Below are positions 8,489 to 20,722 of a DNA stretch of 64,000 bases, one piece after another. How positions within the stretch are numbered: the first letter of the stretch is position 1; each line of letters begins with the position of its first letter. Position numbers and translations under genes: made by a program. The notes under the pieces are model-generated. The model was not told the DNA's origin. It saw nothing but the letters and a program-made list of their open reading frames with translations, and did no database searches. Origin of the DNA: Cyclobacteriaceae bacterium (GTDB lineage: Bacteria > Bacteroidota > Bacteroidia > Cytophagales > Cyclobacteriaceae); assembly GCA_965215825.1 (NCBI GenBank), contig CBDCEM010000002.1, positions 1,614,504-1,678,503 of the forward strand, read 5' to 3'.

Positions 8489-9214
8489 ATGAGACGTTTG
8501 AATTTCACAGTCCGATTTCTCGGAGCCGCGTCCTGGGCGATATGGATATTACTCATTGCTCAGATTTGGAGTAGTCATAAAGTGTGGAGAATGATCAATG
8601 ATCATGATATGACCTCAACTGAAGGTGTGGTTGATATGTCTTATCGATTTAAAACCATGGCGGCTCATTATGCCTATCACTATCTGGATACCATACCTGC
8701 TACCCAAAATATTCGATACTACTCAAGTCCGGAAATTTTCATGGATTATGACTTTCAACCAGTTGTTTTGGGAGAATTAAGAAAACATAACTCTCCTTTG
8801 CTGTTCGTCGTGAATCCTAGCCTACCTATGAGTATTGCTTCCACGAATAAGGTGTTTTTCTTATCAGAATCTTCCTATTTGATTTTTCTGGTGCTTTTGT
8901 TTCTTGTACTCAGATGGTTAATAGAAATATTTAAAAGGATGAAGCAGGGAGAATATTTTACGAGGAAGCAATATGGACTCGTTAATAGAATTGGCTTTAC
9001 AGTCATAGCCATTCCCATTTCGGATATGATCATTAGGAAAATAGTGATGACAGTCGTGACTCAAAACACGTTGACGGATCTCTCACTCGGAAGTTTGTAT
9101 TCCATTCCAACATTTGATTTTCCTATATTTTTTGTGGGGGTGGCGATTATTATTCTCGCCGAGGCGTTCAAATATGGCTTAGACCTCCAGCATGATCAAA
9201 GTTTAACCATATAA
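8489..9214 (+). CDS. DUF2975-like integral membrane protein
   Basis: 241 aa with four predicted TM helices. It is followed 3 bp later by a small XRE-family HTH protein, an arrangement known for DUF2975/YozG-like pairs. Confidence 0.5.
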   Translation: MRRLNFTVRFLGAASWAIWILLIAQIWSSHKVWRMINDHDMTSTEGVVDMSYRFKTMAAHYAYHYLDTIPATQNIRYYSSPEIFMDYDFQPVVLGELRKHNSPLLFVVNPSLPMSIASTNKVFFLSESSYLIFLVLLFLVLRWLIEIFKRMKQGEYFTRKQYGLVNRIGFTVIAIPISDMIIRKIVMTVVTQNTLTDLSLGSLYSIPTFDFPIFFVGVAIIILAEAFKYGLDLQHDQSLTI

Positions 9215-9217
9215 CAG

Positions 9218-9430
9218 ATGTCGATTGTATTAAACCTTGATGTCATGATGGCGAAACGAAAGGTACGGTCTAAAAAGCTTGCGGAGGCAATCGGTATAAC
9301 TGAAGCCAACCTCTCTGTATTAAAGACCGGTAAAGCCAGGGCCATCCGTTTTTCAACACTGGAGGCCATTTGCCGTGAATTAGATTGTCAACCAGGCGAA
9401 TTACTGGTATATGAGCCTGATGAGCGATGA
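9218..9430 (+). CDS. XRE-family helix-turn-helix transcriptional regulator (YozG-like)
   Basis: KKLAEAIGITEANLSVLKTGKARAIRFSTLEAICRELDCQPGELL is a Cro/C1-type HTH. The real start is probably at MMAKRK, about position 9245. Confidence 0.7.
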   Translation: MSIVLNLDVMMAKRKVRSKKLAEAIGITEANLSVLKTGKARAIRFSTLEAICRELDCQPGELLVYEPDER

Positions 9431-9459
9431 CAAACACTTATAGTTAGTAAACTAGAGAA

Positions 9460-12400
9460 TTACTCCGCTTTTTTTCTGCCACCCGAGCTCTTGCGTACAC
9501 TTACTTGTTTAACAGATTTGATCTGTTCTTCGATGGCTCTTAAACTGTCGGCGATATGGTCCATGCCCTCTGCCAATTGCGCGTTTTGCCCATAACCTTT
9601 TTGCTTTTGTTGTTTGGCAAAACGTTCCAAAATTAATTTCCAACGTTGTTGCTCACTGTCAGTCATGCTGTCAGTTAGTAGTTTAAAGCGAAGTAAGTTC
9701 GCTTCCGCATTGGAAGTTAGGGTCTGAGCTTCATTCTCATAATGCGAGTGGATCAAAGTATCTAACTCTTCTTCATTCATCATTGGGAGCAATTTCTCCA
9801 CAATCTTATTCATGTCGCGGTAAGAACCCTGTAATTTAAAGGAAGGCTCAATTCGGTATTCATCGGCCATAGCTGCAGATTCAATATAGAGCAGGTTCAC
9901 CTTTAGTACCACGTCTCTCACCTTCATCATGTGTTTTAGAACAGCAACATATTCCTGCAGCTCTTCAGCTGTATGATTGACTTCAAATTTCAAACCTTCA
10001 CTTGAGCCAGTTTCCGCCATTTTCAATACAGAATGAACATCGTCAAGGCTTCTTGCTGCCAACTTGCTTAATATTGGATTCGAGGTAAGTGAGTTTTCGA
10101 TGTAGCTCAATTTGAAAACTTCTGCCGAATCACCGATTACATCTCCCAGGTTGTACACATCCGCCCGGTTTGAAAGCATATCCGGAATTTGAAATTTATC
10201 TCCACTTTCTGTGTAAGGGTTGCCAGCCATAACCACACAGACCTTTTTGCCTCTGAAATCGTAAGTCTTGGTTTTCCCTTTGTAGACGCCTTCTATCTTT
10301 CGCTGCGCATCGCACATGGAAATGAATTTTTGTAAGAATTCTGGATTGCAATGCTGTATGTCATCCAGATAGATCATAACATTATTGCCCATTTCGAAGG
10401 ATAGATTGAGTTTTTGTAACTCCTCAGCGGACGCGGCATTGGGGGCGTCGGCCGGATCTACAGAAGTCACTTCATGTCCAATGGCAGGACCATTGATTTT
10501 CATGAAGATGACACCCAGTCGACTTGCGATATACTCCATAAGAGTCGTTTTGCCATAACCGGGTGGAGAAACTAGTAATAGCAATCCCATCAAGTCTGTT
10601 CTTTTACCTTCACCAGCTGTGCCAATTTGTTTGGCCAGGTTCGCGCCTATCAAAGGGAAATAGACCTTGTCAATGAGCTTGTTCCTGACGAAGGAGGACA
10701 GGACCCTTGGTTTGAAGCTCTCCAACTTTAGTTCATCACGATAAGTTCTGGTTAATTCTTTCTTGAGCGATTGAAATTCGGAGAACTTTGGAGCAACTTC
10801 CCGGTCATAAGTACTCAATCGTTCGAGGAATTCGTTCAAGTGAAATTGATACTTCCCCTCAGAAATGAGGGAGTGACTTCCTTTTAGCCCGTCAAGTGAA
10901 GCGACTAATGAAATATTGCTGACATACGAAGCATTATGATCCTGGAAGAGTGCGAGGTTTGCGACTTCATAAATCAGTTCCTTGGAGAAAGACTGGTCTT
11001 CATTGAGAAATGCATGTACCCAATGATGTACCATTCGGAGGGCCAGTAAGGGATTGTTTCTGAGCCCACTCAGCGATTGTTTAAATTTCGTTTCGGCCTT
11101 TTTCGTTTTTAGCGATTTTTGAAAAGCCGTAAAGCATTGATCAGCAGCGGCGCTAATGAGAAAGTGATCCTTAGTTGAAAGTTCTTCAAATAGATATCGA
11201 GAAGCTTCAGAAATTATATTTTCAGAAAGGTCAACCGCTATTTGGCTCGCTCTTATTCCTTTTATGAGGTCTCCGATCAATCCTTCAAATTCCCTGGACC
11301 CTGGAAAAACAGATAAAATTATACCGGCTGATTTGATTTGATTGAGCAATGATTGCTGATCTTTTTCGGATATCAATGTGGTCCAATAGAATTTGGCGAG
11401 AGCTCTTGCCTGTCCACTGTACTTCAAAGTACCTGCCGCCCTTGACCTTTCAGCCAAAACATCTAAAATAAGTAGGGTGTCGAACTCATTAATTCCTTTG
11501 ACATACCCTTCTTCATAACGAGAAGTCATTACGGTTTGGATCAGATCTTTCCTGGCTTCTTCATTAAGATTCATGTAGGAACTCAGGTCGTGATCAGCCA
11601 AATTATCGATCATTGTCTGACCTTCGAGCGCCTGAAAAATCAAGTAAGCCAGATATTCCGATCGGTAGACGGCATCATTTTCTGAGATAAGCGTTTGATT
11701 CCAGAAACTACCAAGGTCGAGCAAACTCTCATGAGTAATAGGCTCGAAAAAGTCCGTACCAATTAAGTGGAAATGTGGCGTTTTTTGCTTGACGACCATG
11801 CTAAGGTCGAGGGCAAGATTGTTTGTGAAAAACTTGTGATTGCCCATGCTAATCACATTGTCGCCATCGGCAAAGAGGTCTTGTTGGTCACGAAGCTTTC
11901 TTTGAATTTCTTCTTTGATGGTCTTGAGTTGGCTCAGTAAATCATCGGATTTCACTGTATCCCCACTTTGGACCAACTGATCAGCTATACTTCGGACTTT
12001 CTCAACCATCAGATCGGCAGCAAAGTAGGCATTGATGGCATCCTTGGTTTTCAATGTCCCGGACTTATTGCGGATGGCTCCCATAACTCGTTCAGCGGCT
12101 TGAAACAATTGGTTGGCTTTCTTATTGCGCTGCTCGGTGAGATATAGCTTTCTCGCTTCAAACGCATTATATATTTCTTCGCGTTTGGCTGTGATCACTT
12201 CCAGAAACTCATCGAATTCAGAAAACTTACCTTCCAGTTCCTCTACCTGTACGATCAATTTGGTAAGGTACTCTTCGCATTTTTCCGGAGTGTCACAGAT
12301 GTCGAGGTAATTGGTGACTGATTGTTCCAGGAGTTTAACAGTGGCTGAAAATTCTGCTTTACCCTCAACTGAAAGTAGGGACTTCCTTTTATTGGCTAAG

Positions 12401-14442
12401 GTGGCCTTCACCTGATTGTAAGTGCTATAAATATCGGATATCAGCTCAATGATCCGGGTGGTTTGGGTCGCATCACTGATTTTTAAGTTACTTACTGTGT
12501 CGATTAGCAGGTCCAGTTCCGAAGCTACTTTTTCACCCTCGAGTTTGAGTTCATCCGCTTCTACAACTTTAGAAATTTTTTCAATCTTTTTTTCGAAATC
12601 GGTGACCTTCTCAACGAAGGGTGCGAGTGCATGGTCTTGCATCAGGAACCTAACACAAGACTGGGAAATGATGTCTGATGCTTCTGATAGCTCCCCGTCA
12701 AAAGTCTCCAACCTGGCGACATCCACATATCGCAGGTCTTTGGCACTAATGACTTCTCCGCGAATTTCCCGAACCTCCGCCAACAGGTCCACATACAAGT
12801 TGATATTGCCAAAAGAAGCTTTTGACTTCTTAATTACATCTGATTGTTTACTGGCAAGTTCTGCAACTCTTTTGAGAGAATTCTCTTTGATTTTACGAAC
12901 CTTCTCATATTCATCCACAGCAGATTCTGCCACTTGCCGGATGTCTTTTAGCGGGGTTGCCAGGTTGTACTGCTTCTCCTTTGCCAACCAATGGTAGCTG
13001 TCAATTACATCGGTTGATTTTTTGATTACATCGATGTACAGGTCCGCATAAATTTCTTCTTTATTGACAAGATTGATGATGTCCTGGCATTCGGCCATGG
13101 CTCTCACGACATCTTTGTTCCCTATTTTTTGAAGAAAGGAATCCGTTTTTTCAGTGACTTGAAAGTTGGGTCCGGTGAATGGTGTTTGCCAAATCTGGAT
13201 GGTATGGTGTTTTTTAGGCTCTTCATCTGCCCTGAAAACACACATTTCTCCATTCTCGAAAATGGTAAATCCATGACAGATGATCGGATTCTCTACCTTT
13301 TGTGCAATGATGTTGTAGTTCAGTAGAAGAAAAACACCTTGTGGACGGTTGTAGAAAACGTAGAGGAAATCTTCTCCATTCAATGAGGTAATTCTTCTTT
13401 CGAACAGCATGTCCTGCAGGTTGTAGTCAAACTGTTTGTGTTCCCCTGATTGCAGGTAGTAGCCATTACTGAAAATCAAACCATGGTCATCCGGTAAAAG
13501 GATACAGGAAGAACTGATGGCGTCAATGCGTTTGACTTCCTTAAGTTTTTCGTTGAAAACCAGGTATCGATCTTCCTCTTGATAGGGTTTGGCCTTGATC
13601 AGGATCAGGCTCCCAATCTCCGAAAATCCAAATTCACCATCGGCCAGTGTCTGTTGCTTGTTTTCAACATCCTCGCTGTAAATGCCTTCGCCATCTGCAG
13701 TATTGTCTTCGATTTTGACAGTGAGATCTCCGCCGACAGTTTCTACAAATACCCTGTCCTTGATAGAAATATGTGGATGTTCTCCTTCACGGAAATCCTC
13801 TCTCCGGGTACGAGTCCATTGAAATTCGTGTTGTACGGGAAACTTGTATTCATGGTCACTTCTATTGTCGACATATACGAGCTCGGAGTTTTTCAACTCC
13901 CATTTAAAGGTTTTGATGTCACTGACGTCTTGCCCAATTCGGAAGACCATGTGAAGGAATGGGCCAACTGTTGCAAAACGAAGGAACTGCGTATGTTTGT
14001 AGTATTTATAGAGTTTTTGAAAGTCGTCAAGAAAAACCTGATCCTTCAGTAGATTTTCAAGTGGTAATTCATGAAAAGTTTGATCCTCTCGAAATTCGAA
14101 GTAGCTAAAAACATCTCCGGGTTTTAGTTCGCTTCGAAGGCCCACCAGCACATTATAACCAAATAAGAAATTGTTCCCAATGGCGTGCATATCCCATGGA
14201 ATGCAATTATTTGCTGTCGTAATCCGGTCGGTTGCTAATACCTTCGTTTCAATGGTTCCGAAGACTCGTTTGCGCTCTTCATTAAGTTGAGCAAGGGTAG
14301 ATTGAAGGGACTTGGAATTATTAAGAATGCGATTACGTAACAACTCGTAAGTGCCACCTTCTAATGCATTTTGTGGGTTTTCATCCGCCATAGATCTCTT
14401 CGTCTTTTTCGATAGTGTTTTGTCGTTTTCAGAATTTTGCAA
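9460..14442 (-). CDS. Giant (1660 aa) soluble protein with a central coiled coil and a C-proximal AAA+ ATPase core (MoxR/AAA_5-like)
   Basis: Walker A LLLVSPPGYGKTTL at nt 10540-10572 (reverse-complement), Walker B-like VMIYLDD, and sensor-1 VVMAGNP...PDMLSNRAD typical of AAA_5/MoxR-type modules. No TM helices. About 300 aa of heptad-like E/K/L-rich sequence precede the ATPase. It lies 99 bp downstream of, and co-directional with, a flotillin gene. Confidence 0.7.
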   Translation of the reverse strand: MQNSENDKTLSKKTKRSMADENPQNALEGGTYELLRNRILNNSKSLQSTLAQLNEERKRVFGTIETKVLATDRITTANNCIPWDMHAIGNNFLFGYNVLVGLRSELKPGDVFSYFEFREDQTFHELPLENLLKDQVFLDDFQKLYKYYKHTQFLRFATVGPFLHMVFRIGQDVSDIKTFKWELKNSELVYVDNRSDHEYKFPVQHEFQWTRTRREDFREGEHPHISIKDRVFVETVGGDLTVKIEDNTADGEGIYSEDVENKQQTLADGEFGFSEIGSLILIKAKPYQEEDRYLVFNEKLKEVKRIDAISSSCILLPDDHGLIFSNGYYLQSGEHKQFDYNLQDMLFERRITSLNGEDFLYVFYNRPQGVFLLLNYNIIAQKVENPIICHGFTIFENGEMCVFRADEEPKKHHTIQIWQTPFTGPNFQVTEKTDSFLQKIGNKDVVRAMAECQDIINLVNKEEIYADLYIDVIKKSTDVIDSYHWLAKEKQYNLATPLKDIRQVAESAVDEYEKVRKIKENSLKRVAELASKQSDVIKKSKASFGNINLYVDLLAEVREIRGEVISAKDLRYVDVARLETFDGELSEASDIISQSCVRFLMQDHALAPFVEKVTDFEKKIEKISKVVEADELKLEGEKVASELDLLIDTVSNLKISDATQTTRIIELISDIYSTYNQVKATLANKRKSLLSVEGKAEFSATVKLLEQSVTNYLDICDTPEKCEEYLTKLIVQVEELEGKFSEFDEFLEVITAKREEIYNAFEARKLYLTEQRNKKANQLFQAAERVMGAIRNKSGTLKTKDAINAYFAADLMVEKVRSIADQLVQSGDTVKSDDLLSQLKTIKEEIQRKLRDQQDLFADGDNVISMGNHKFFTNNLALDLSMVVKQKTPHFHLIGTDFFEPITHESLLDLGSFWNQTLISENDAVYRSEYLAYLIFQALEGQTMIDNLADHDLSSYMNLNEEARKDLIQTVMTSRYEEGYVKGINEFDTLLILDVLAERSRAAGTLKYSGQARALAKFYWTTLISEKDQQSLLNQIKSAGIILSVFPGSREFEGLIGDLIKGIRASQIAVDLSENIISEASRYLFEELSTKDHFLISAAADQCFTAFQKSLKTKKAETKFKQSLSGLRNNPLLALRMVHHWVHAFLNEDQSFSKELIYEVANLALFQDHNASYVSNISLVASLDGLKGSHSLISEGKYQFHLNEFLERLSTYDREVAPKFSEFQSLKKELTRTYRDELKLESFKPRVLSSFVRNKLIDKVYFPLIGANLAKQIGTAGEGKRTDLMGLLLLVSPPGYGKTTLMEYIASRLGVIFMKINGPAIGHEVTSVDPADAPNAASAEELQKLNLSFEMGNNVMIYLDDIQHCNPEFLQKFISMCDAQRKIEGVYKGKTKTYDFRGKKVCVVMAGNPYTESGDKFQIPDMLSNRADVYNLGDVIGDSAEVFKLSYIENSLTSNPILSKLAARSLDDVHSVLKMAETGSSEGLKFEVNHTAEELQEYVAVLKHMMKVRDVVLKVNLLYIESAAMADEYRIEPSFKLQGSYRDMNKIVEKLLPMMNEEELDTLIHSHYENEAQTLTSNAEANLLRFKLLTDSMTDSEQQRWKLILERFAKQQKQKGYGQNAQLAEGMDHIADSLRAIEEQIKSVKQVSVRKSSGGRKKAE

Positions 14443-14541
14443 GCCAGGATTGAATATCCATCCTATGTTGCGCTAGAGCTGCTTTTACCTGCTCAACCAT
14501 GAATTGTTGGTCAACCAAATAAAAGCAGCGGGATCTTAAGA

Positions 14542-16707
14542 TCAAAGACCGAGTGTGCTGGCCTTTTGATCACTTACACCCAACACTTCGGCGATTGTGC
14601 CTAGATGCTTGAGAACCCCTTTGTCCTCGTCACTTCCGGCTTCATTCGCCAGTCTCAATAAGAGTGCTGAAATGCTCAGGTCTTTGATGTCATTCACTGA
14701 TACACCGAATTGACTAATGAATCCCTTTAACTTTTCCTTGAAATTTTGTCCACTACCCGTTTTGAAGAAGGTGTCTTTAACCTGGGTAAGTGTTTCACTG
14801 TTGTCCATCAATTTATCAATGGACTTGCCTTTGGTAATGGACCCAACAATCTGATCAAAGAACATGGTCTCTCCACCAACGATATCGATATTGGCCGCTT
14901 TCAATGCTTCGGCAATTACAGTTGCCTGAGACATGGCAATCTCTTTCTGAATATTGACTTTTGCCAATTCGATCTGACGATCTGTTTCCAATTTCAATTT
15001 GAACTCTTCGTGTGCACGTCCAACTTCATCAAGCACCTGCATGGCTTTAGCTTTTTCTTTAATGCCTTCTGCATCGGCCATTAATTTTTGCTTTAGCACA
15101 TTGGCTTCTGCAAGTCCTTTTTTCTCTTCAGCATCGGCTTTAAGGGAGATTACCTTGGCTTCGGACTGTCCTTGTTCCAGGTTGATCTTCGCTTTCACCT
15201 GCCCCAGCTCTTCATCTGCTTCCGCCTGAGCCAAACCTCTTTCTTTGATGCCCTTAGCTTCTGCCTCGGCCTGAGATTCGATCACTGAAGCCTGAGCCTC
15301 TCCTTCTTTCTCTTTTGCGGCGGCTTTGGCTTCCATTACCTGAGCTTCAGAAAGTCCGATTGCCGCGGCTTCCGCAGCCTGGGCTTCTGATAACGTTTTG
15401 ATGGCCTGGGCCCTGTGGATTGCAGCGCTTTCTTCCGCCTGCGCATCGATCACTGCTTGCTTAGCCAGGTGTTCAGAAGCTTCTTTTTTCGCTTCCGCAT
15501 CCTTGATCTCTCGAACCAGTGCTTCTTCCGCATCTTTCTCCGCCAAAGTAATGGCCACTTTTTTGGTTCGTTCAGCTTGAGCATTAGCCTCTATATCTTT
15601 CATGCGCTCCTTCTCTTCGACTACCGTCTTTTCAATGGTCACGCGTTCACGGATAACATCCTGAATGTTTTTCCGCTCTTCTTCAACCGCCTTCTCTTTT
15701 TCGATTTGTGCGATCTCAACAAATCGTTCTTTCTCTGTTACCTCCAGTTGCCGGGCCCGATCAACCTTTTCCGTTTCTACGGCATTAGTCCGCTCTTTAT
15801 TTTTCGCAGCTACCAGTACTTCACGGAGTTTGTTCTCTTCGGCTACCTGTATTTCTTCTTCAGTGGCGATCCTCGCACGCTCAGCTTTGAGCTTTTCTTC
15901 TTCCTGAATTTTCATGGTTTCGGCCTCTTCCCGCGCCTGAACCACTTCAATTTCTCTCTTTTGTTTAGCCTCCGCTTCTGCTTGTTGTCGCTCGAGTTCG
16001 AGTACGGTTTCTTTTGCTTCTACATCTTGTTTCGTCAGGGTCTTTTCTTTTTCCCGTTCGATGTAGTTGGCTTCCATTTTCTGATCAGCCGTCAACTTGA
16101 TGATCTTCTTGATACCTTCTGCATCTAAAATGTTGCGTTCGTCCAGCTCAGTAATTGGCGTTTGCTCCAGGTAGTCAATGGCACAGTCATCCAGAGCGTA
16201 GCCATTTAGATCGGTACCTATGGCATTTAATATTTCCTTTTTGAAAACATCCCGACTATTATAGAGATCAACGAATTCCATTTGTTTACCCACCGTCTTC
16301 AATGCTTCGGAGAATTTGGCGTCGAATAATAATTCAAGTGATTCTTGATGTGAGGCCCGAGTGCTTCCAATAGATTGAGCCACTTCTTTTACCTCATCTT
16401 CGGTTTGACTGACTCTGACAAAGAAAGTAACTTTGATATCGGCCCGCATGTTGTCCCTGCAGATAAGGCCTTCTTTACCAGTTCGGGAAATTACGATGGT
16501 TTTTAGTGTGATGTCCATCACTTCCAACTTGTGAAGTACAGGGACCACAAACATTCCATTAAATGAAACTTTCGTACCTCCTACGCCTGTTTTGATTAGG
16601 GCTTCCCCTTGAAGGGCTTTGCGATACATTTTGATGATTGCTGATAAAATACCGATAAAAGCAATTGTGATTACCACAGCTATTATCCAAAAAACGGGTC
16701 CTGCCAT
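14542..16707 (-). CDS. Flotillin-like SPFH/band-7 protein (YqiK/FloT-like) with a long E/A/K-rich coiled-coil tail
   Basis: N-terminal TM helix plus an SPFH domain (…GGTKVSFNGMFVVPVLHKLEVMDITLKT…). These are followed by about 350 aa of AEAEAKQKREIEVVQAREEAE-type repeats and a C-terminal flotillin-like region. 721 aa. Confidence 0.8.
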   Translation of the reverse strand: MAGPVFWIIAVVITIAFIGILSAIIKMYRKALQGEALIKTGVGGTKVSFNGMFVVPVLHKLEVMDITLKTIVISRTGKEGLICRDNMRADIKVTFFVRVSQTEDEVKEVAQSIGSTRASHQESLELLFDAKFSEALKTVGKQMEFVDLYNSRDVFKKEILNAIGTDLNGYALDDCAIDYLEQTPITELDERNILDAEGIKKIIKLTADQKMEANYIEREKEKTLTKQDVEAKETVLELERQQAEAEAKQKREIEVVQAREEAETMKIQEEEKLKAERARIATEEEIQVAEENKLREVLVAAKNKERTNAVETEKVDRARQLEVTEKERFVEIAQIEKEKAVEEERKNIQDVIRERVTIEKTVVEEKERMKDIEANAQAERTKKVAITLAEKDAEEALVREIKDAEAKKEASEHLAKQAVIDAQAEESAAIHRAQAIKTLSEAQAAEAAAIGLSEAQVMEAKAAAKEKEGEAQASVIESQAEAEAKGIKERGLAQAEADEELGQVKAKINLEQGQSEAKVISLKADAEEKKGLAEANVLKQKLMADAEGIKEKAKAMQVLDEVGRAHEEFKLKLETDRQIELAKVNIQKEIAMSQATVIAEALKAANIDIVGGETMFFDQIVGSITKGKSIDKLMDNSETLTQVKDTFFKTGSGQNFKEKLKGFISQFGVSVNDIKDLSISALLLRLANEAGSDEDKGVLKHLGTIAEVLGVSDQKASTLGL

Positions 16708-16741
16708 AATGTAGATGTTTAGTTATTTATGTTATAAACTT

Positions 16742-17317
16742 TTAAGGTTGTGTGTTAAGTGTGTCTTTTAATTCTTTCAAGTGATGAATGGCCACATCAT
16801 CAAGGGAAAAACCATTCAAATCGACTCCAATGGTTTCCATAATTTCCATTTTCAGCTCATCTACTTTTGACAATAAATCATCCAGATTACTTCGATAGAC
16901 TAACGTTAGAATTGCCTCTTCGAACTTTTTCCCAAAATTTCTTTCTATAAATTCAGGACTGCTCACATCGCCACCTCCAAATGTTTGCGCGACCTCTTTT
17001 ACGTCATCTTCCGTCTGATTGATCCTAAGGTAGAATAAGACTTCTATTTCCAGTTTTCGACCGTCTTTGGTTAAAATTGCGTCATCGTTTCGTCTGCTTA
17101 CTTCATAGGACTTTATTGTTATGTCCAGTCGCTCCAGGTGATGAATAACTGGTGTCACAAACATTCCACTGAATGAAACCTTAGTACCTCCAATTCCTGA
17201 CCTGACTAGCGCTTCACCTTGTTTGGCCTTTTGATACATTTTGATGATCGCTGACATTAAGCCGATCATGACTGTCATGGCTACGAATACTACGATATAA
17301 TAGATAGGACCTGCCAC
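16742..17317 (-). CDS. Short SPFH-domain protein (paralogue of the flotillin N-terminus)
   Basis: 191 aa. Residues 1-115 align almost position-for-position with the N-terminus of the 721-aa flotillin (MAGPIYYIV…GGTKVSFSGMFVTPVIHHLERLDITIK… against MAGPVFWII…GGTKVSFNGMFVVPVLHKLEVMDITLK…). Confidence 0.7.
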   Translation of the reverse strand: MAGPIYYIVVFVAMTVMIGLMSAIIKMYQKAKQGEALVRSGIGGTKVSFSGMFVTPVIHHLERLDITIKSYEVSRRNDDAILTKDGRKLEIEVLFYLRINQTEDDVKEVAQTFGGGDVSSPEFIERNFGKKFEEAILTLVYRSNLDDLLSKVDELKMEIMETIGVDLNGFSLDDVAIHHLKELKDTLNTQP

Positions 17318-17943
17318 TATGCGTATGGTTCTACGTAATAAAATTTTTCTACCTCATTTTGTTCGATCACCAGGCCTTTTTCTCCTTTAGCAATGGTTAA
17401 TCCGTTTCGGGTTTTGGCATTGATCAATACCGAAGTTCCATTCACTTTAATCTCTGCCTGGCTCAATGAACTGTCGGAAATAGGCAGTTTTGCAATGCAC
17501 AATTGACCTACTATATATTTCACCGCTTCTGTATCTTGACGAATTTTTCTATAAAATTTAGCAATAGGGATAGTTAGAAATTTCGCGACAAACAGGCTTC
17601 CAATAAACAATGGAACAAATGTGATCAATCCGGGCAAAAGACTTTGAATGCCAAAGAAATCGTTGACTAATATGGTGGATACCCACAGGGGCAATGAGAA
17701 GAAAGTGATGAATATCATCAAAGGCATGTGCCCAATATTGAAGAAGGATAATACCGATGCAAGCCCCCCAATTTCAACCTCGACATCCATATCCGCGTCA
17801 ACGTCCAGGTCCAAATCTACGTCCACGGTATCTACATCTATAACTCCCAGAATTACTATTAACCAGTAGATAATGACAAAAATCATGAGAACCGTAGGTA
17901 TTACGTTGATCCCAGTAATTGAAAAATCCAAGAGTTCAAGCAT
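17317..17943 (-). CDS. NfeD/YqiJ-like membrane protein (flotillin-associated)
   Basis: 208 aa. It has an N-terminal TM pair, an unusual acidic DVDTVDVDLDLDVDADMDVEVE tract, two more TM helices and a C-terminal soluble beta-rich domain. Its stop overlaps the start of the next SPFH gene, giving the classic NfeD-SPFH operon logic (compare yqiJ-yqiK). Confidence 0.55.
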   Translation of the reverse strand: MLELLDFSITGINVIPTVLMIFVIIYWLIVILGVIDVDTVDVDLDLDVDADMDVEVEIGGLASVLSFFNIGHMPLMIFITFFSLPLWVSTILVNDFFGIQSLLPGLITFVPLFIGSLFVAKFLTIPIAKFYRKIRQDTEAVKYIVGQLCIAKLPISDSSLSQAEIKVNGTSVLINAKTRNGLTIAKGEKGLVIEQNEVEKFYYVEPYA

Positions 17944-18041
17944 AAGTCGGTCTGTTTAAGTTCAAGGTATTGGTCAATTGCTTTTTTCCAGAGTAAAAAT
18001 CGTTGTTTCGACGATTGTTAAGGGACCCCTAAAATAACGAT

Positions 18042-18058
18042 TTTGCAAAATTTGCAAA
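18042..18058. promoter_or_regulatory. Tandem self-complementary TTTGCAAA boxes upstream of the NfeD-SPFH-ATPase operon
   Basis: TTTGCAAAaTTTGCAAA lies about 100 bp upstream of the start codon at 17943. Each 8-mer is palindromic. Confidence 0.3.
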
Positions 18059-18187
18059 TCGAACCTTAGCTCTTTTTTCTGTGGTCAGGAAAAATCATCT
18101 TCCTATATAGGGAACAATTGATAATATCAACGAAGAGCAAAGACAAAAGTTTCAGCAAACGCTGTAAATATTAGCAGCGCTAATTAA

Positions 18188-20722
18188 TCAGTAAGTGAGC
18201 GACATTTCAACAGGTTCCTGGATTCGAAAATCCATTGGTAGTGAGATAATCATCGTCACACCGTCCTTTTGATTATGCGCCTCAATAGATCCATTGTGTT
18301 GGCTAATGAAGGAGTAAGCCACTGTCAATCCCAGTCCTGCACCTTCACCAGTTTCCTTGGTTGAAAACAAAGGGTCAAAGATCTTTCCCATTGTAGGCTG
18401 ATCAATATTGTCACCATAATTGTGGAATGAAATGACAATGCATTTTAGGTCCTCGTTAATTTCGGTTTTTACTTCAATGACTTTTGGAAGGTTTATTTTT
18501 TCTCGGTGTTTGGTATAATAGATGGCATTATCAAGCAAGTTGATGAACACTTTATGCAATCGGTCTGCGTAAACCTCTATTTCCGTTGTGGCGTTGAGTG
18601 TTGTTTTGATTTCCATTTCCTCATCCAGGCGACCATTGAATAAAGACACGGCACTCTTGAGAATTTCATCAATGGTGGTGGATTTACGAACATCAGCTCC
18701 TTGTTGAGCATAAGACGAAAGACCCTTTACTATTGTGGTGGCGCGTTCTGATCCTTCCTCAATCCATGAGAGGGCTTTATGAAGTTCTTCATTTACATCT
18801 TTGGGTACATTTTCAATGTGATTCAATTCAAGGTCAATCACATTTTTGGCTCCATGTATGAGATTGAGAGAATTGTTCATTTCGTGGGCAACGCCCATCG
18901 TAAAAACTCCTAATGCCGCTGTTTTTTCTGCCTGAATGACCTGATTTTGAGTTGTTCTTAGTTCATCAAGTGTGGCTTCTATTTCTTCTTTTTGAGCCGA
19001 CAATTTGGATATGGAGGCCTCCAGCTCGTGATTGGTTCCCCGAAGTTCATTATTCAATGACTCAATCTCAGAAGTTCTCAATTGGACCAGATCTTCCAGG
19101 TGATCACGGTACTTTGCCAGCTGTCGTTCTACTTGTTTCCGGGCAGATATGTCTCTCACCGAGACTAATATCTTGTCGTTTGATTGGTCTAATGCCGAAA
19201 GGGCAATTTCAGCGTCGAAAACTGTCCCGTCAGACTTTAGACGCTGCGTTTCTCCAAGGTGAACCCGACCCTGACCTTTTATGACACTCAGGGCTTTTTC
19301 TATGGAGGCTGCCAACTCGGCTTTGTCCATATCCGGGGGAATAAGGTCAAAAGGGTTCAGCTTGAAAAATTGTTCTTTTTTGTATCCAAATAATTTGCAC
19401 GCCGACACATTCGCATCCAGATAGCGTTTCTTTGCAGGCTGATATACGAGTTTTGCCTCATAAGCAAATTCGAATAAATTTCTGAATTCCTCTTCATTCT
19501 TGATTAACCCACGTTCTGCTTTTTTCCGGTGACTAATATCCAGGAAAGAGGCTAAGAAATGCTTCTTTTCCCGGTCCAATAAAGAGACGGTGATCTCTGT
19601 TTCGAAAACCGTTCCATCGGCTTTAAGATTGAGGCTTTCTTCTCGTAAATAGCCATGTGTCATGACGTGATCAAGAGACCTTTGAATATTTTCCTTCGCA
19701 GATTCCTGAAAAACCTGAGGAGGTTTAAGATCAATAGGTGTCAATTTCTTTAATTGTTCTATAGAGTAACCAAATAATTCGACTGCAGCATGATTCATGT
19801 GCAGGTATTTGTTGTTGACACTGTCATACACGACCTTGGCTTCAACACTGTACTCGAAAAGGCTTTGATATTTCTCTAGACTCGATTCCAGTTCTTTTTG
19901 TTGGAATTCTCGCTGTAATTCAAGTGAGAGCCGGGAGGAATAGAGCTCCAGTAACGACTGAATTAGTTTCGTGTTTTCAATAGGCTTATTGTCTATAAGG
20001 CAGAAATGGCCAATTACTTTGCCCTCATCATTCTTAAGCCCAATCCCGAGGTAAGATTCGATATCCGGCCCAAAAAGGCTATTGTTGATATTCTTTTTTA
20101 AGTGCTCTTCTTCAGACAAACAGAACACTCCCTTAGTTAGAACCTCACCACAAGGCATTCCTTCAACTTCGTAGGTGAAATTTTCCTGTAACTCTCGATT
20201 GTAGCTAAGTGCCCTGACGGTGATCGTCTTCAAGGACTCGTCTGCTATCCCGATCATGGCATATTTCACATTGAGCAAGTCGCTGATTTTAAGTACGATA
20301 GTTGAAAAAATAGATAGATTGTTATTTGTGAATTCAGCCGTGATACTTCGTATTAAAAGATCTTTGAGTTGACTTTCTGTTACATCCTCTGCCAGATATA
20401 GTTTTAATTCGTTTGGGAAACTGTCGTTGTGTTTATGACTTAATCGGATCCATTTCTCAGTATTTACAACTTTTATTGGGATATCAAATAGATTAGGTGA
20501 GTGCTTAAGTGTGTTTCGATAATGGGCCAGACTGTTCTGATGAATGAGACTCTCGAAAGCTATAGGTTCCTTAGAGGGTTCTATTCCAGTCAATTGCTGG
20601 AAGTTGACATTGTAGTAAGACAAATTGTCCCCTCGAATGTAAACGAGACCAATGGGTAAACCGTCATCGATAGGTTCTTGCATGTCACAGTTTGTTTTTA
20701 CAATTGGACAGGTGACATACAC
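18188..20722 (-). CDS. Multi-sensor hybrid-type histidine kinase (GAF/PAS x2 - HisKA - HATPase_c)
   Basis: 844 aa. It has PAS-like blocks, a coiled-coil linker, an H-box (MGVAHEMNNSLNLIHG) and N/G1/G2 boxes (NLLDNAIYY…, GEGAGLGLTVAYSF). No N-terminal TM region, so it is probably cytoplasmic. Confidence 0.8.
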   Translation of the reverse strand: MYVTCPIVKTNCDMQEPIDDGLPIGLVYIRGDNLSYYNVNFQQLTGIEPSKEPIAFESLIHQNSLAHYRNTLKHSPNLFDIPIKVVNTEKWIRLSHKHNDSFPNELKLYLAEDVTESQLKDLLIRSITAEFTNNNLSIFSTIVLKISDLLNVKYAMIGIADESLKTITVRALSYNRELQENFTYEVEGMPCGEVLTKGVFCLSEEEHLKKNINNSLFGPDIESYLGIGLKNDEGKVIGHFCLIDNKPIENTKLIQSLLELYSSRLSLELQREFQQKELESSLEKYQSLFEYSVEAKVVYDSVNNKYLHMNHAAVELFGYSIEQLKKLTPIDLKPPQVFQESAKENIQRSLDHVMTHGYLREESLNLKADGTVFETEITVSLLDREKKHFLASFLDISHRKKAERGLIKNEEEFRNLFEFAYEAKLVYQPAKKRYLDANVSACKLFGYKKEQFFKLNPFDLIPPDMDKAELAASIEKALSVIKGQGRVHLGETQRLKSDGTVFDAEIALSALDQSNDKILVSVRDISARKQVERQLAKYRDHLEDLVQLRTSEIESLNNELRGTNHELEASISKLSAQKEEIEATLDELRTTQNQVIQAEKTAALGVFTMGVAHEMNNSLNLIHGAKNVIDLELNHIENVPKDVNEELHKALSWIEEGSERATTIVKGLSSYAQQGADVRKSTTIDEILKSAVSLFNGRLDEEMEIKTTLNATTEIEVYADRLHKVFINLLDNAIYYTKHREKINLPKVIEVKTEINEDLKCIVISFHNYGDNIDQPTMGKIFDPLFSTKETGEGAGLGLTVAYSFISQHNGSIEAHNQKDGVTMIISLPMDFRIQEPVEMSLTY

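Follow-up and report, generated by a model that had tools for sequence, protein, structure and literature searches.

A probable PspA-less form of the YqiJ–flotillin–giant ATPase module, with an added SPFH paralogue, in a Cyclobacteriaceae bacterium

Introduction

A purely computational study (Ravi et al., mSystems 2024, PMC11237479; preprint bioRxiv 2020.09.24.301986) described a bacterial operon in which a YqiJ/YuaF gene is followed by a Band-7/flotillin gene and by a gene for a protein that combines a beta-propeller, coiled coils and an AAA+ domain, with or without a CesT–PspA dyad. Abbreviated operons, without the dyad, were reported to be the more widely distributed, no mechanism was offered for the ATPase, and the neighbourhood of Dokdonia donghaensis ANH61663.1 is given as an example in Table S3 of that study. 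Here we analyse four adjoining minus-strand genes at positions 9460–17943 of a 64,000-nucleotide stretch of the genome of a Cyclobacteriaceae bacterium (assembly GCA_965215825.1, contig CBDCEM010000002.1, positions 1,614,504 to 1,678,503; hereafter the window). They very probably represent this published module, in its abbreviated, PspA-less form: a YqiJ/NfeD-like protein, a YqiK-type flotillin and a giant ATPase with a beta-propeller, coiled coils and a MoxR-like AAA+ core, to which this lineage adds a short SPFH paralogue.

The function, assembly and turnover of bacterial flotillins are unsettled, and a widespread and near-obligatory ATPase partner provides an experimental handle on them. 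SPFH proteins are described, in PMC13220708 among other papers, as forming cages able to enclose an AAA+ protease, as in HflK/C–FtsH. Literature searches returned no experiment on the ATPase family of this module. No paper was found by full-text search that names ‘DNA repair ATPase’ (the label that members of the family carry) together with flotillin, and literature searches for flotillin with a propeller, AAA+, PspA or CesT returned only two comparative-genomics papers on the phage shock protein (Psp) system; a paper on SPFH proteins of Pseudomonas aeruginosa contains nothing on this ATPase.

Results

A flotillin–ATPase gene pair conserved across phyla

Read in the coding direction, the locus begins with a gene for a YqiJ/NfeD-like inner-membrane protein of 208 amino acids (aa; 17317–17943), followed by those for a 191-aa flotillin paralogue that consists of a transmembrane (TM) segment and an SPFH domain only (16742–17317), for a 721-aa YqiK-type flotillin (14542–16707) and for the giant ATPase, whose open reading frame (ORF) counts 1660 aa from a TTG codon (9460–14442), all on the minus strand. 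The stop codon of the first gene overlaps the GTG start of the second by 1 nucleotide (nt; TAGTG), and spacers of 34 and 99 nt precede the third gene and the TTG codon of the fourth. The true start of the ATPase is most likely the ATG at 14391, which encodes methionine 18 of the long ORF: 16 homologues have this residue without exception, and annotation gives a length of 1643 aa to each of the four closest relatives. A start there yields a protein of 1643 aa and widens the last spacer to 150 nt. Apart from that spacer, the four ORFs and their gaps are as set out in an earlier note on this DNA, which had been made from the sequence letters. The ATPase has no membrane segment and each of the other three proteins has one or three.

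We collected 80 loci encoding the best-scoring relatives of the ATPase (44–57% identity) from contigs representing one genome per species and used the four window proteins as queries against their ORFs; 72 of the 80 have usable upstream sequence and are informative. An orthologue of the flotillin lies directly upstream of the ATPase gene and on the same strand in 69 of these 72 loci, at a median gap of roughly 120 nt. The YqiJ-like gene is also present in 59 of the 69, directly upstream of the flotillin gene and co-directional with it (median gap roughly 13 nt). The loci come from at least eight phyla (Bacteroidota, Planctomycetota, Verrucomicrobiota, Kiritimatiellota, Lentisphaerota, Omnitrophota, Desulfobacterota and Bacillota/Clostridia), and the same flotillin–ATPase order recurs with more distant copies of the ATPase (34–41% identity) on five further replicons, namely Pseudomonas fluorescens pQBR103 and replicons of Streptomyces, Deinococcus, Proteus and Vibrio, which belong to Pseudomonadota, Actinomycetota and Deinococcota. 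Except at the Streptomyces locus, an upstream YqiJ-like gene is detected, or plausible by eye, on these replicons too. Same-strand adjacency of the ATPase and flotillin genes is thus near-obligatory across many phyla. The earlier note had taken the genes for a module, a view that hung on how often homologues of the ATPase adjoin SPFH genes, and these counts support a conserved functional module.

The loci fall into a long and a short form. A PspA gene (PF04012, E value 2e-41) lies directly upstream, in the same orientation, at 24 of the 80 loci, all of them named as Bacteroidota or its orders, and 22 of these 24 also carry a CesT_Tir_1 gene (8e-54) and a divergent HTH-S24 regulator, as Table S3 of PMC11237479 shows for Dokdonia. 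A tblastn search of the whole 64-kb window found no homologue of PspA, CesT or the HTH-S24 regulator, and the window locus therefore has the abbreviated form; an adjacent PspA gene is likewise absent from its five closest relatives.

The long-form loci bear on an alternative in which the substrate of the ATPase is PspA/IM30, a polymer of the ESCRT-III type, so that the enzyme would be a Vps4 analogue and the flotillin and YqiJ-like proteins only the membrane platform that unites the two. The arrangement of CesT followed by PspA, directly upstream and in the same orientation in the 24 Bacteroidota loci, speaks for it, as do the PspA operon upstream of the module on pQBR103, the framing of the module around PspA in PMC11237479 and the recruitment of PspA to the membrane by the flotillin-like YdjI of Bacillus subtilis (PMC8581546). 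Yet PspA was detected in only 24 of the 80 loci, all of Bacteroidota, compared with flotillin in 69 of the 72 informative ones, no PspA gene adjoins the module in the window or in its five closest relatives (one may lie elsewhere in the genome), and the ATPase is MoxR-like rather than Vps4-like, with no MIT-like domain detected. We consider this the main alternative but an unlikely one, and keep to the reading in which the flotillin is the partner of the ATPase.

A giant soluble ATPase with a MoxR-like core

No hydrophobic segment is found in the ATPase (maximum KD19 1.0), which is evidently soluble. Its N-terminal part carries DUF3686 (PF12458; residues 46–484, positions 12991–14307; E value 2.4e-184), a beta-propeller that follows a long N-terminal helix. 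DUF7902 (PF25472; residues 604–688, positions 12379–12633; 9e-26) lies within a middle region of roughly 800 aa, predicted as helical bundles with long helices, and a Pfam AAA/AAA_5 match marks the AAA+ core (residues 1288–1411, positions 10210–10581), all on the minus strand. AlphaFold2 models cover residues 18–720 (predicted local distance difference test, pLDDT, 85.5) and 1180–1660 (pLDDT 76). The former shows a long helix, the propeller (a beta-rich block at model residues 50–402) and then helical bundles, and the latter an AAA+ fold with a beta-hairpin inserted between helix 3 and strand 4, before sensor 1. The earlier note had seen a soluble 1660-aa protein with one AAA core near its C terminus, which stands as to solubility and core; the start that it assumed is probably 17 codons too far upstream, and the propeller had been overlooked.

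The propeller gave no functional lead. Foldseek searches with the N-terminal model returned generic propellers at low TM-scores (WD40, paraoxonase, the prolyl-oligopeptidase propeller and the clathrin terminal domain). DUF3686 is represented by 714 cluster representatives among 1.84 billion proteins, and since its full-length matches measure 1500–2036 aa, the propeller is essentially confined to this architecture. Relatives of the ATPase from Planctomycetota, Desulfobacterota and Opitutales are 100–300 aa longer (1750–1978 aa) than those from Bacteroidota (L009, L011, L012, L018, L020, L022, L031, L035, L058 and others); the extra length is apparently C-terminal, as tblastn matches to the window protein stop roughly 0.3–1.1 kb before these ORFs end.

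The AAA+ core has a Walker A motif, GYGKT (K1298), and a Walker B motif, LDD (D1360 and D1361), all of them invariant, and a probable sensor-1 residue (N1408) and a probable arginine finger (R1426) that are also invariant in its relatives. At the level of sequence, the residue set for binding and hydrolysing ATP is intact. The best structural neighbours of the core are the MoxR-class ATPases NorQ and CbbQ. The canonical aromatic pore loop is missing, and GPAIGHEVTSVDP follows strand 2 instead. Sequence and profile searches of the PDB with the ATPase gave only P-loop matches of about 40 residues, so no relative has a solved structure, and Pfam scans of the whole protein and of the middle region found no peptidase family.

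PGAP names relatives of the ATPase ‘DNA repair ATPase’, and the family to which they belong numbers more than 4,000 sequences. Were the name right, the protein would act in DNA repair and its adjacency to flotillin would be coincidental. The Pfam description of PF12458 points the same way, and so do weak matches to the RuvB P-loop and the LexA-like HTH-S24 regulator that diverges from the long-form operons of Bacteroidota. Those RuvB matches, however, reach 23 and 20 bits against equivalog cut-offs of 282 and 299 and cover about 45 residues around the P-loop; scans of the ATPase detected no DNA-binding, nuclease or SMC/ABC head domain; the conserved neighbours of its gene encode membrane proteins, not repair proteins; and the best structural neighbours are chaperone-like MoxR ATPases. 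Full-text literature searches did not find DUF3686 or PF12458 named. A role in DNA repair is thus highly improbable, the name is without support in this analysis, and as a label on public records it is misleading. Partnership with the flotillin remains the reading that we carry forward.

A YqiJK-type membrane protein pair

The 208-aa protein has three TM segments, an acidic DxDxD loop between the first and the second and a C-terminal beta-rich soluble domain. Its own match to the Pfam family YqiJ_N is weak (E value 1.1e-3; its 19.5 bits fall below the cut-off of 23), and YqiJ_N is found in 20 of 60 orthologues (best 3.6e-8). A profile built from these 60 orthologues aligns with Escherichia coli YqiJ over its full length (hhalign probability 96%, E value 4e-9, 186 columns), and the alignment runs through the C-terminal beta-rich region; a Pfam NfeD match occurs in 2 of the 60 and is weak (E value roughly 5e-3). 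The three hydrophobic segments and the full-length alignment agree with the polytopic YqiJ/NfeD-like protein of the earlier note. The DxDxD repeat loop occupies residues 36–57, is also present in the family consensus and may be a cation-binding or electrostatic element.

The flotillin consists of an N-terminal TM segment (residues 7–25), the SPFH domain, a long coiled coil rich in E, A and K, a conserved ‘IDIVGGE’ C-terminal element and a variable tail, with conservation assessed across 50 homologues. Scanned at full length, the 721-aa protein has no Pfam match at an E value of 0.01 or below, whereas Band_7 is found at 3.3e-12 once the scan is confined to the first 200 aa; the miss probably arises because the coiled coil triggers the composition-bias filter of HMMER, residues 191–600 being 57% E+A+K+Q. 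Automated annotation may miss the family, and the precomputed Pfam columns of its relatives are likewise empty (‘-’). The window protein is 29% identical to E. coli YqiK over 442 aa (E value 8e-44), which accords with the coiled-coil flotillin that had been noted earlier, and it is not a FloT orthologue, since the NCBIfam FloT equivalog scores 16.9 bits against a cut-off of 700. With the first gene homologous to yqiJ and the third to yqiK, the two form a YqiJK-type pair.

The flotillin evolves slowly: it is 92% identical to its orthologue at locus L081, and the comparison with L083 gives a non-synonymous divergence (dN) of 0.025 and a ratio to synonymous divergence (dN/dS) of about 0.02. So high a conservation is unlike that of fast-turnover defence genes, and it bears on the suggestion of the earlier note that the locus might encode a defence effector. 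In such an anti-phage or abortive-infection system, a flotillin/NfeD membrane sensor would trigger an ATP-dependent effector, an idea to which the large size and multi-domain build of the NTPase, its repeat-type domain, the occasional presence of the module on megaplasmids, an AbiEii gene between flotillin and ATPase at one locus and the link to a ‘phage shock’ protein lend some colour. Against it, PADLOC-DB 2.0 gave a single marginal P-loop match in the ATPase (mad8, E value 0.008) and none in the other three proteins, no effector domain (nuclease, protease, TIR or pore-former) was detected, tblastn found no copy of the module in 50,697 phage records, and the neighbours in the window and in close relatives are housekeeping genes. 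A defence role is therefore very unlikely, and the defence suggestion falls away in favour of a flotillin-based module.

A short SPFH paralogue under purifying selection

The 191-aa protein comprises one N-terminal TM segment and an SPFH domain (Band_7, 2e-14) and is 48% identical to residues 1–182 of the neighbouring flotillin, whose N terminus it duplicates, as had been noticed from the sequence. The window and loci L081, L083, L084 and L085 share the same flanking genes and encode ATPases that are 84–90% identical. Of these five, the window, L083 (192 aa) and L085 (179 aa) carry the short SPFH gene, and L081 and L084 lack it. Compared with L081, it appears as a clean insertion between the stop codon of the YqiJ-like gene and the old spacer, into which its last codons run.

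The short SPFH proteins are closest to the flotillins of their own lineage, at 48–52% identity, compared with 65–82% among the N-terminal parts of orthologous flotillins, and a recent tandem duplication was rejected on this ground. A further short SPFH gene, at L008 (183 aa), is 27% identical to that of the window and for this reason probably has a separate, independent origin.

Partial duplication could have left a functionless, decaying fragment, and several properties of the gene fit that description: the protein lacks the coiled coil and the C terminus of the flotillin, the gene is missing from two of the five close relatives, its 3′ end runs into the ancestral intergenic spacer, and between the window and L083 it evolves about eight times faster than the flotillin gene (dN 0.19 compared with 0.025). 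A decaying fragment would nevertheless hardly keep an intact ORF in three genomes at near-saturated dS with a dN/dS of about 0.075, a rough estimate given that saturation, nor its TM segment and SPFH core; its start, moreover, overlaps the upstream stop codon in a manner compatible with translational coupling. We regard decay as quite improbable and read the short SPFH gene, from this pattern of substitutions, as a functional, fast-evolving accessory paralogue under purifying selection rather than a pseudogene. Its accessory status is a detail new here, and PMC11237479 does not mention the paralogue.

Candidate regulatory elements

Between the flotillin and ATPase genes, 12 nt past the flotillin stop codon, begins a predicted RNA hairpin (14478–14529, minus strand) with a minimum free energy of −29.8 kcal/mol (z −4.5; none of 200 shuffled sequences matches it) and no U-tract. 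L083, L084 and L081 have equivalent hairpins whose stems differ in sequence. A search of positions 9000–18400, hairpin included, gave no Rfam match at an E value of 1 or below, and a scan for terminators came up empty on the minus strand. The hairpin is a candidate attenuator or 3′ stabiliser that could set the ratio of flotillin to ATPase, as would suit an abundant scaffold and a scarce enzyme, and its conservation is the second detail new here. A single transcription unit for all four genes is plausible from their arrangement, with the qualification that the hairpin lies between the last two.

Upstream of the module, two TTTGCAAA palindromes and a TTATTTTAG box (18029–18059, minus strand) and an inverted repeat, AATCGT-CGAAACA-ACGATT (AATCGT-N7-ACGATT; 17998–18016, minus strand), are nearly invariant in five related genomes, and their flanks vary. 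Folded as RNA, the inverted repeat does no better than shuffled sequences, which makes a DNA operator the more likely explanation, and the blocks at 17998–18059 together form a candidate promoter/operator of the Bacteroidota type. A sigma-70 promoter scan was uninformative, with 17 sites found and 16.7 expected, and models a promoter type that is wrong for Bacteroidota. A further block, ‘GCTAATATTT..AGC...TGCTGAAACTTTTGTC’ (18145–18176, minus strand), lies just past the stop codon of a histidine kinase gene. All five related genomes conserve this block, which shows no significant fold.

Neighbouring genes

This kinase gene (18188–20722, minus strand) encodes an 844-aa GAF–PAS–PAS–HisKA–HATPase sensor kinase without an adjacent response regulator. 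We considered it as a member of the module and found it syntenic only in the four closest genomes, with PadR and MacB genes in its place at L082; it probably does not belong to the module. On the other side, the module ends at 9460, where it is adjoined by a convergent plus-strand pair encoding a 241-aa DUF2975 membrane protein (8489–9214) and, beginning 3 nt past the stop codon of the former, a 70-aa protein resembling XRE/HTH_26 (9218–9430). The pair ends 30 nt from the ATPase stop codon and recurs in L081 and L085.

Elsewhere, the spacer between flotillin and ATPase genes is a hotspot for insertions (L004, L010, L029, L035 and L040), which include genes for DUF3997, for an IS200-like transposase and for DUF3592/ion-channel-like proteins. 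Gaps reach 2.7 kb, the largest of them (L059) being due to a split of the ATPase ORF rather than to an inserted gene. The inserted genes are unrelated and variable, and were rejected as a missing fourth component. Where the ATPase gene stands without a flotillin gene (L021, L031 and L045), its neighbours encode a 7TMR-DISM/SpoIIE protein, a TPR protein, and Uma2 and TonB_C proteins. On pQBR103 (L086, 85.4–97.6 kb), the triad follows genes for PspA, a rhomboid protease, DUF2491, DUF350, DUF1190 and a glutathionylspermidine-synthase-like protein, an arrangement that corresponds to the polyamine-linked PspA context, the second context described in PMC11237479.

Discussion

The genes analysed here amount to a minor variation in gene content on a module that has been described computationally, and will be no surprise to specialists who know the 2024 paper. 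The earlier note had regarded the giant AAA+ partner as no part of the described NfeD–SPFH pair, a claim of novelty that fails, as the operon, its PspA-less form included, had been covered in the 2020 preprint and the 2024 article. The module is a good experimental target rather than a discovery, and tractable carriers of it exist among Flavobacteriia and in Proteus mirabilis, Vibrio campbellii and P. fluorescens (on pQBR103).

How the parts might work together can be outlined by analogy. With the help of its YqiJ-like partner, the flotillin would oligomerize into a large SPFH assembly at the inner membrane, on its cytoplasmic side, as we infer from the rings or cages in which other SPFH proteins organize partners, AAA+ machines among them. 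The soluble ATPase would oligomerize through its MoxR-like AAA+ ring and would use its long helical arms and N-terminal propellers to reach the flotillin assembly or the clients that this holds. It would then spend ATP on remodelling the assembly, either building it up and taking it apart or loading and freeing clients, of which PspA would be one where its gene is present. The purpose of such remodelling could be a response to envelope or membrane stress. Given the absence of a canonical aromatic pore loop and the MoxR-like core, the ATPase probably tugs on a specific partner element, in the fashion of MoxR, rather than unfolding substrates generally. The short SPFH paralogue may co-assemble with the membrane-proximal SPFH ring, or cap it, as a modulator, and the hairpin after the flotillin gene may keep the ATPase sub-stoichiometric.

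Several observations weigh against this interpretation. The Walker B motif ends in DD, not DE, so that hydrolysis may be slow or regulatory; residues ~860–1180 of the ATPase, which include conserved positions between about 860 and 1050, match no family; and the flotillin tail past approximately residue 640 is poorly conserved among the 50 homologues and therefore presents no obvious docking motif. Three of the 72 informative loci (L021, L031 and L045) hold an orphan ATPase, with no flotillin gene within 7–10 kb upstream, and the tblastn search for PspA, CesT and HTH-S24 homologues in the window came back empty. MoxR ATPases normally work with a VWA-domain partner, and clustering of the neighbours at the collected loci revealed neither a VWA gene nor any other conserved gene near the ATPase beyond the flotillin module. 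Finally, a strong hairpin divides the flotillin and ATPase genes of the window, and unrelated genes often lie between the two elsewhere (DMP19, IS200-like, esterase and AbiEii), so tight translational or transcriptional coupling is not required.

On balance, a PspA-less module together with the mechanism outlined above is the explanation of the locus that we moderately favour as a whole. Its mechanistic part, ATP-driven remodelling of flotillin, is tentative when taken by itself, and we would sooner expect it to need revision than to stand as drawn. More doubtful again is the fully specified version, in which the ATPase would be a dedicated ATP-driven assembly and disassembly factor for flotillin cages, the SPFH paralogue a modulator or cap, and the hairpin the element that sets the stoichiometry of scaffold and enzyme. 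If this were true, the ATPase would be the first enzyme known to act on the SPFH scaffold itself, in a role comparable to that of Vps4 for ESCRT-III.

Comparison with known systems

Set beside the YqiJ–YqiK pair of E. coli and the YuaF(NfeD2)–FloT pair of B. subtilis, the first and third genes of the locus are homologous to YqiJ and YqiK and keep the same order and orientation. They differ in what follows, as yqiK of E. coli K-12 is succeeded by sibD/ibsD and not by an ATPase gene, and in the length of the flotillin, that of the window being 168 aa longer.

Coupling of an SPFH scaffold to a hexameric AAA+ enzyme at the membrane has a precedent in HflK/C–FtsH, and likewise in mitochondrial prohibitin with the m-AAA protease and in SLP2–YME1L. 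FtsH is nevertheless a membrane-anchored M41 protease of the classical AAA clade, whereas the window ATPase is soluble and MoxR-like, has no protease domain and is encoded beside an SPFH gene. With the MoxR class (NorQ, CbbQ and RavA) it shares the AAA+ fold and the Walker A and B, sensor-1 and arginine-finger elements, NorQ and CbbQ being its nearest neighbours. MoxR proteins, however, measure roughly 250–500 aa and have a VWA-domain partner; here the core makes up the C-terminal fifth of 1643 aa, its Walker B is DD and no conserved VWA gene is nearby. The long-form operons resemble Vps4/ESCRT-III in encoding an AAA+ ATPase together with PspA, a polymer of the ESCRT-III superfamily, and differ from it in that the ATPase belongs to another AAA+ clade and has no MIT domain, and in that PspA is dispensable for the gene association.

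The closest match is the operon of PMC11237479. Clustering of neighbouring genes independently recovered both of its forms, the long one at 24 loci and the short one, and the same ATPase family is present in loci of Flavobacteriia. The window departs from the published long form in having no CesT, PspA or HTH-S24 regulator, and from the operon as described in carrying an extra, SPFH-only paralogue of the flotillin.

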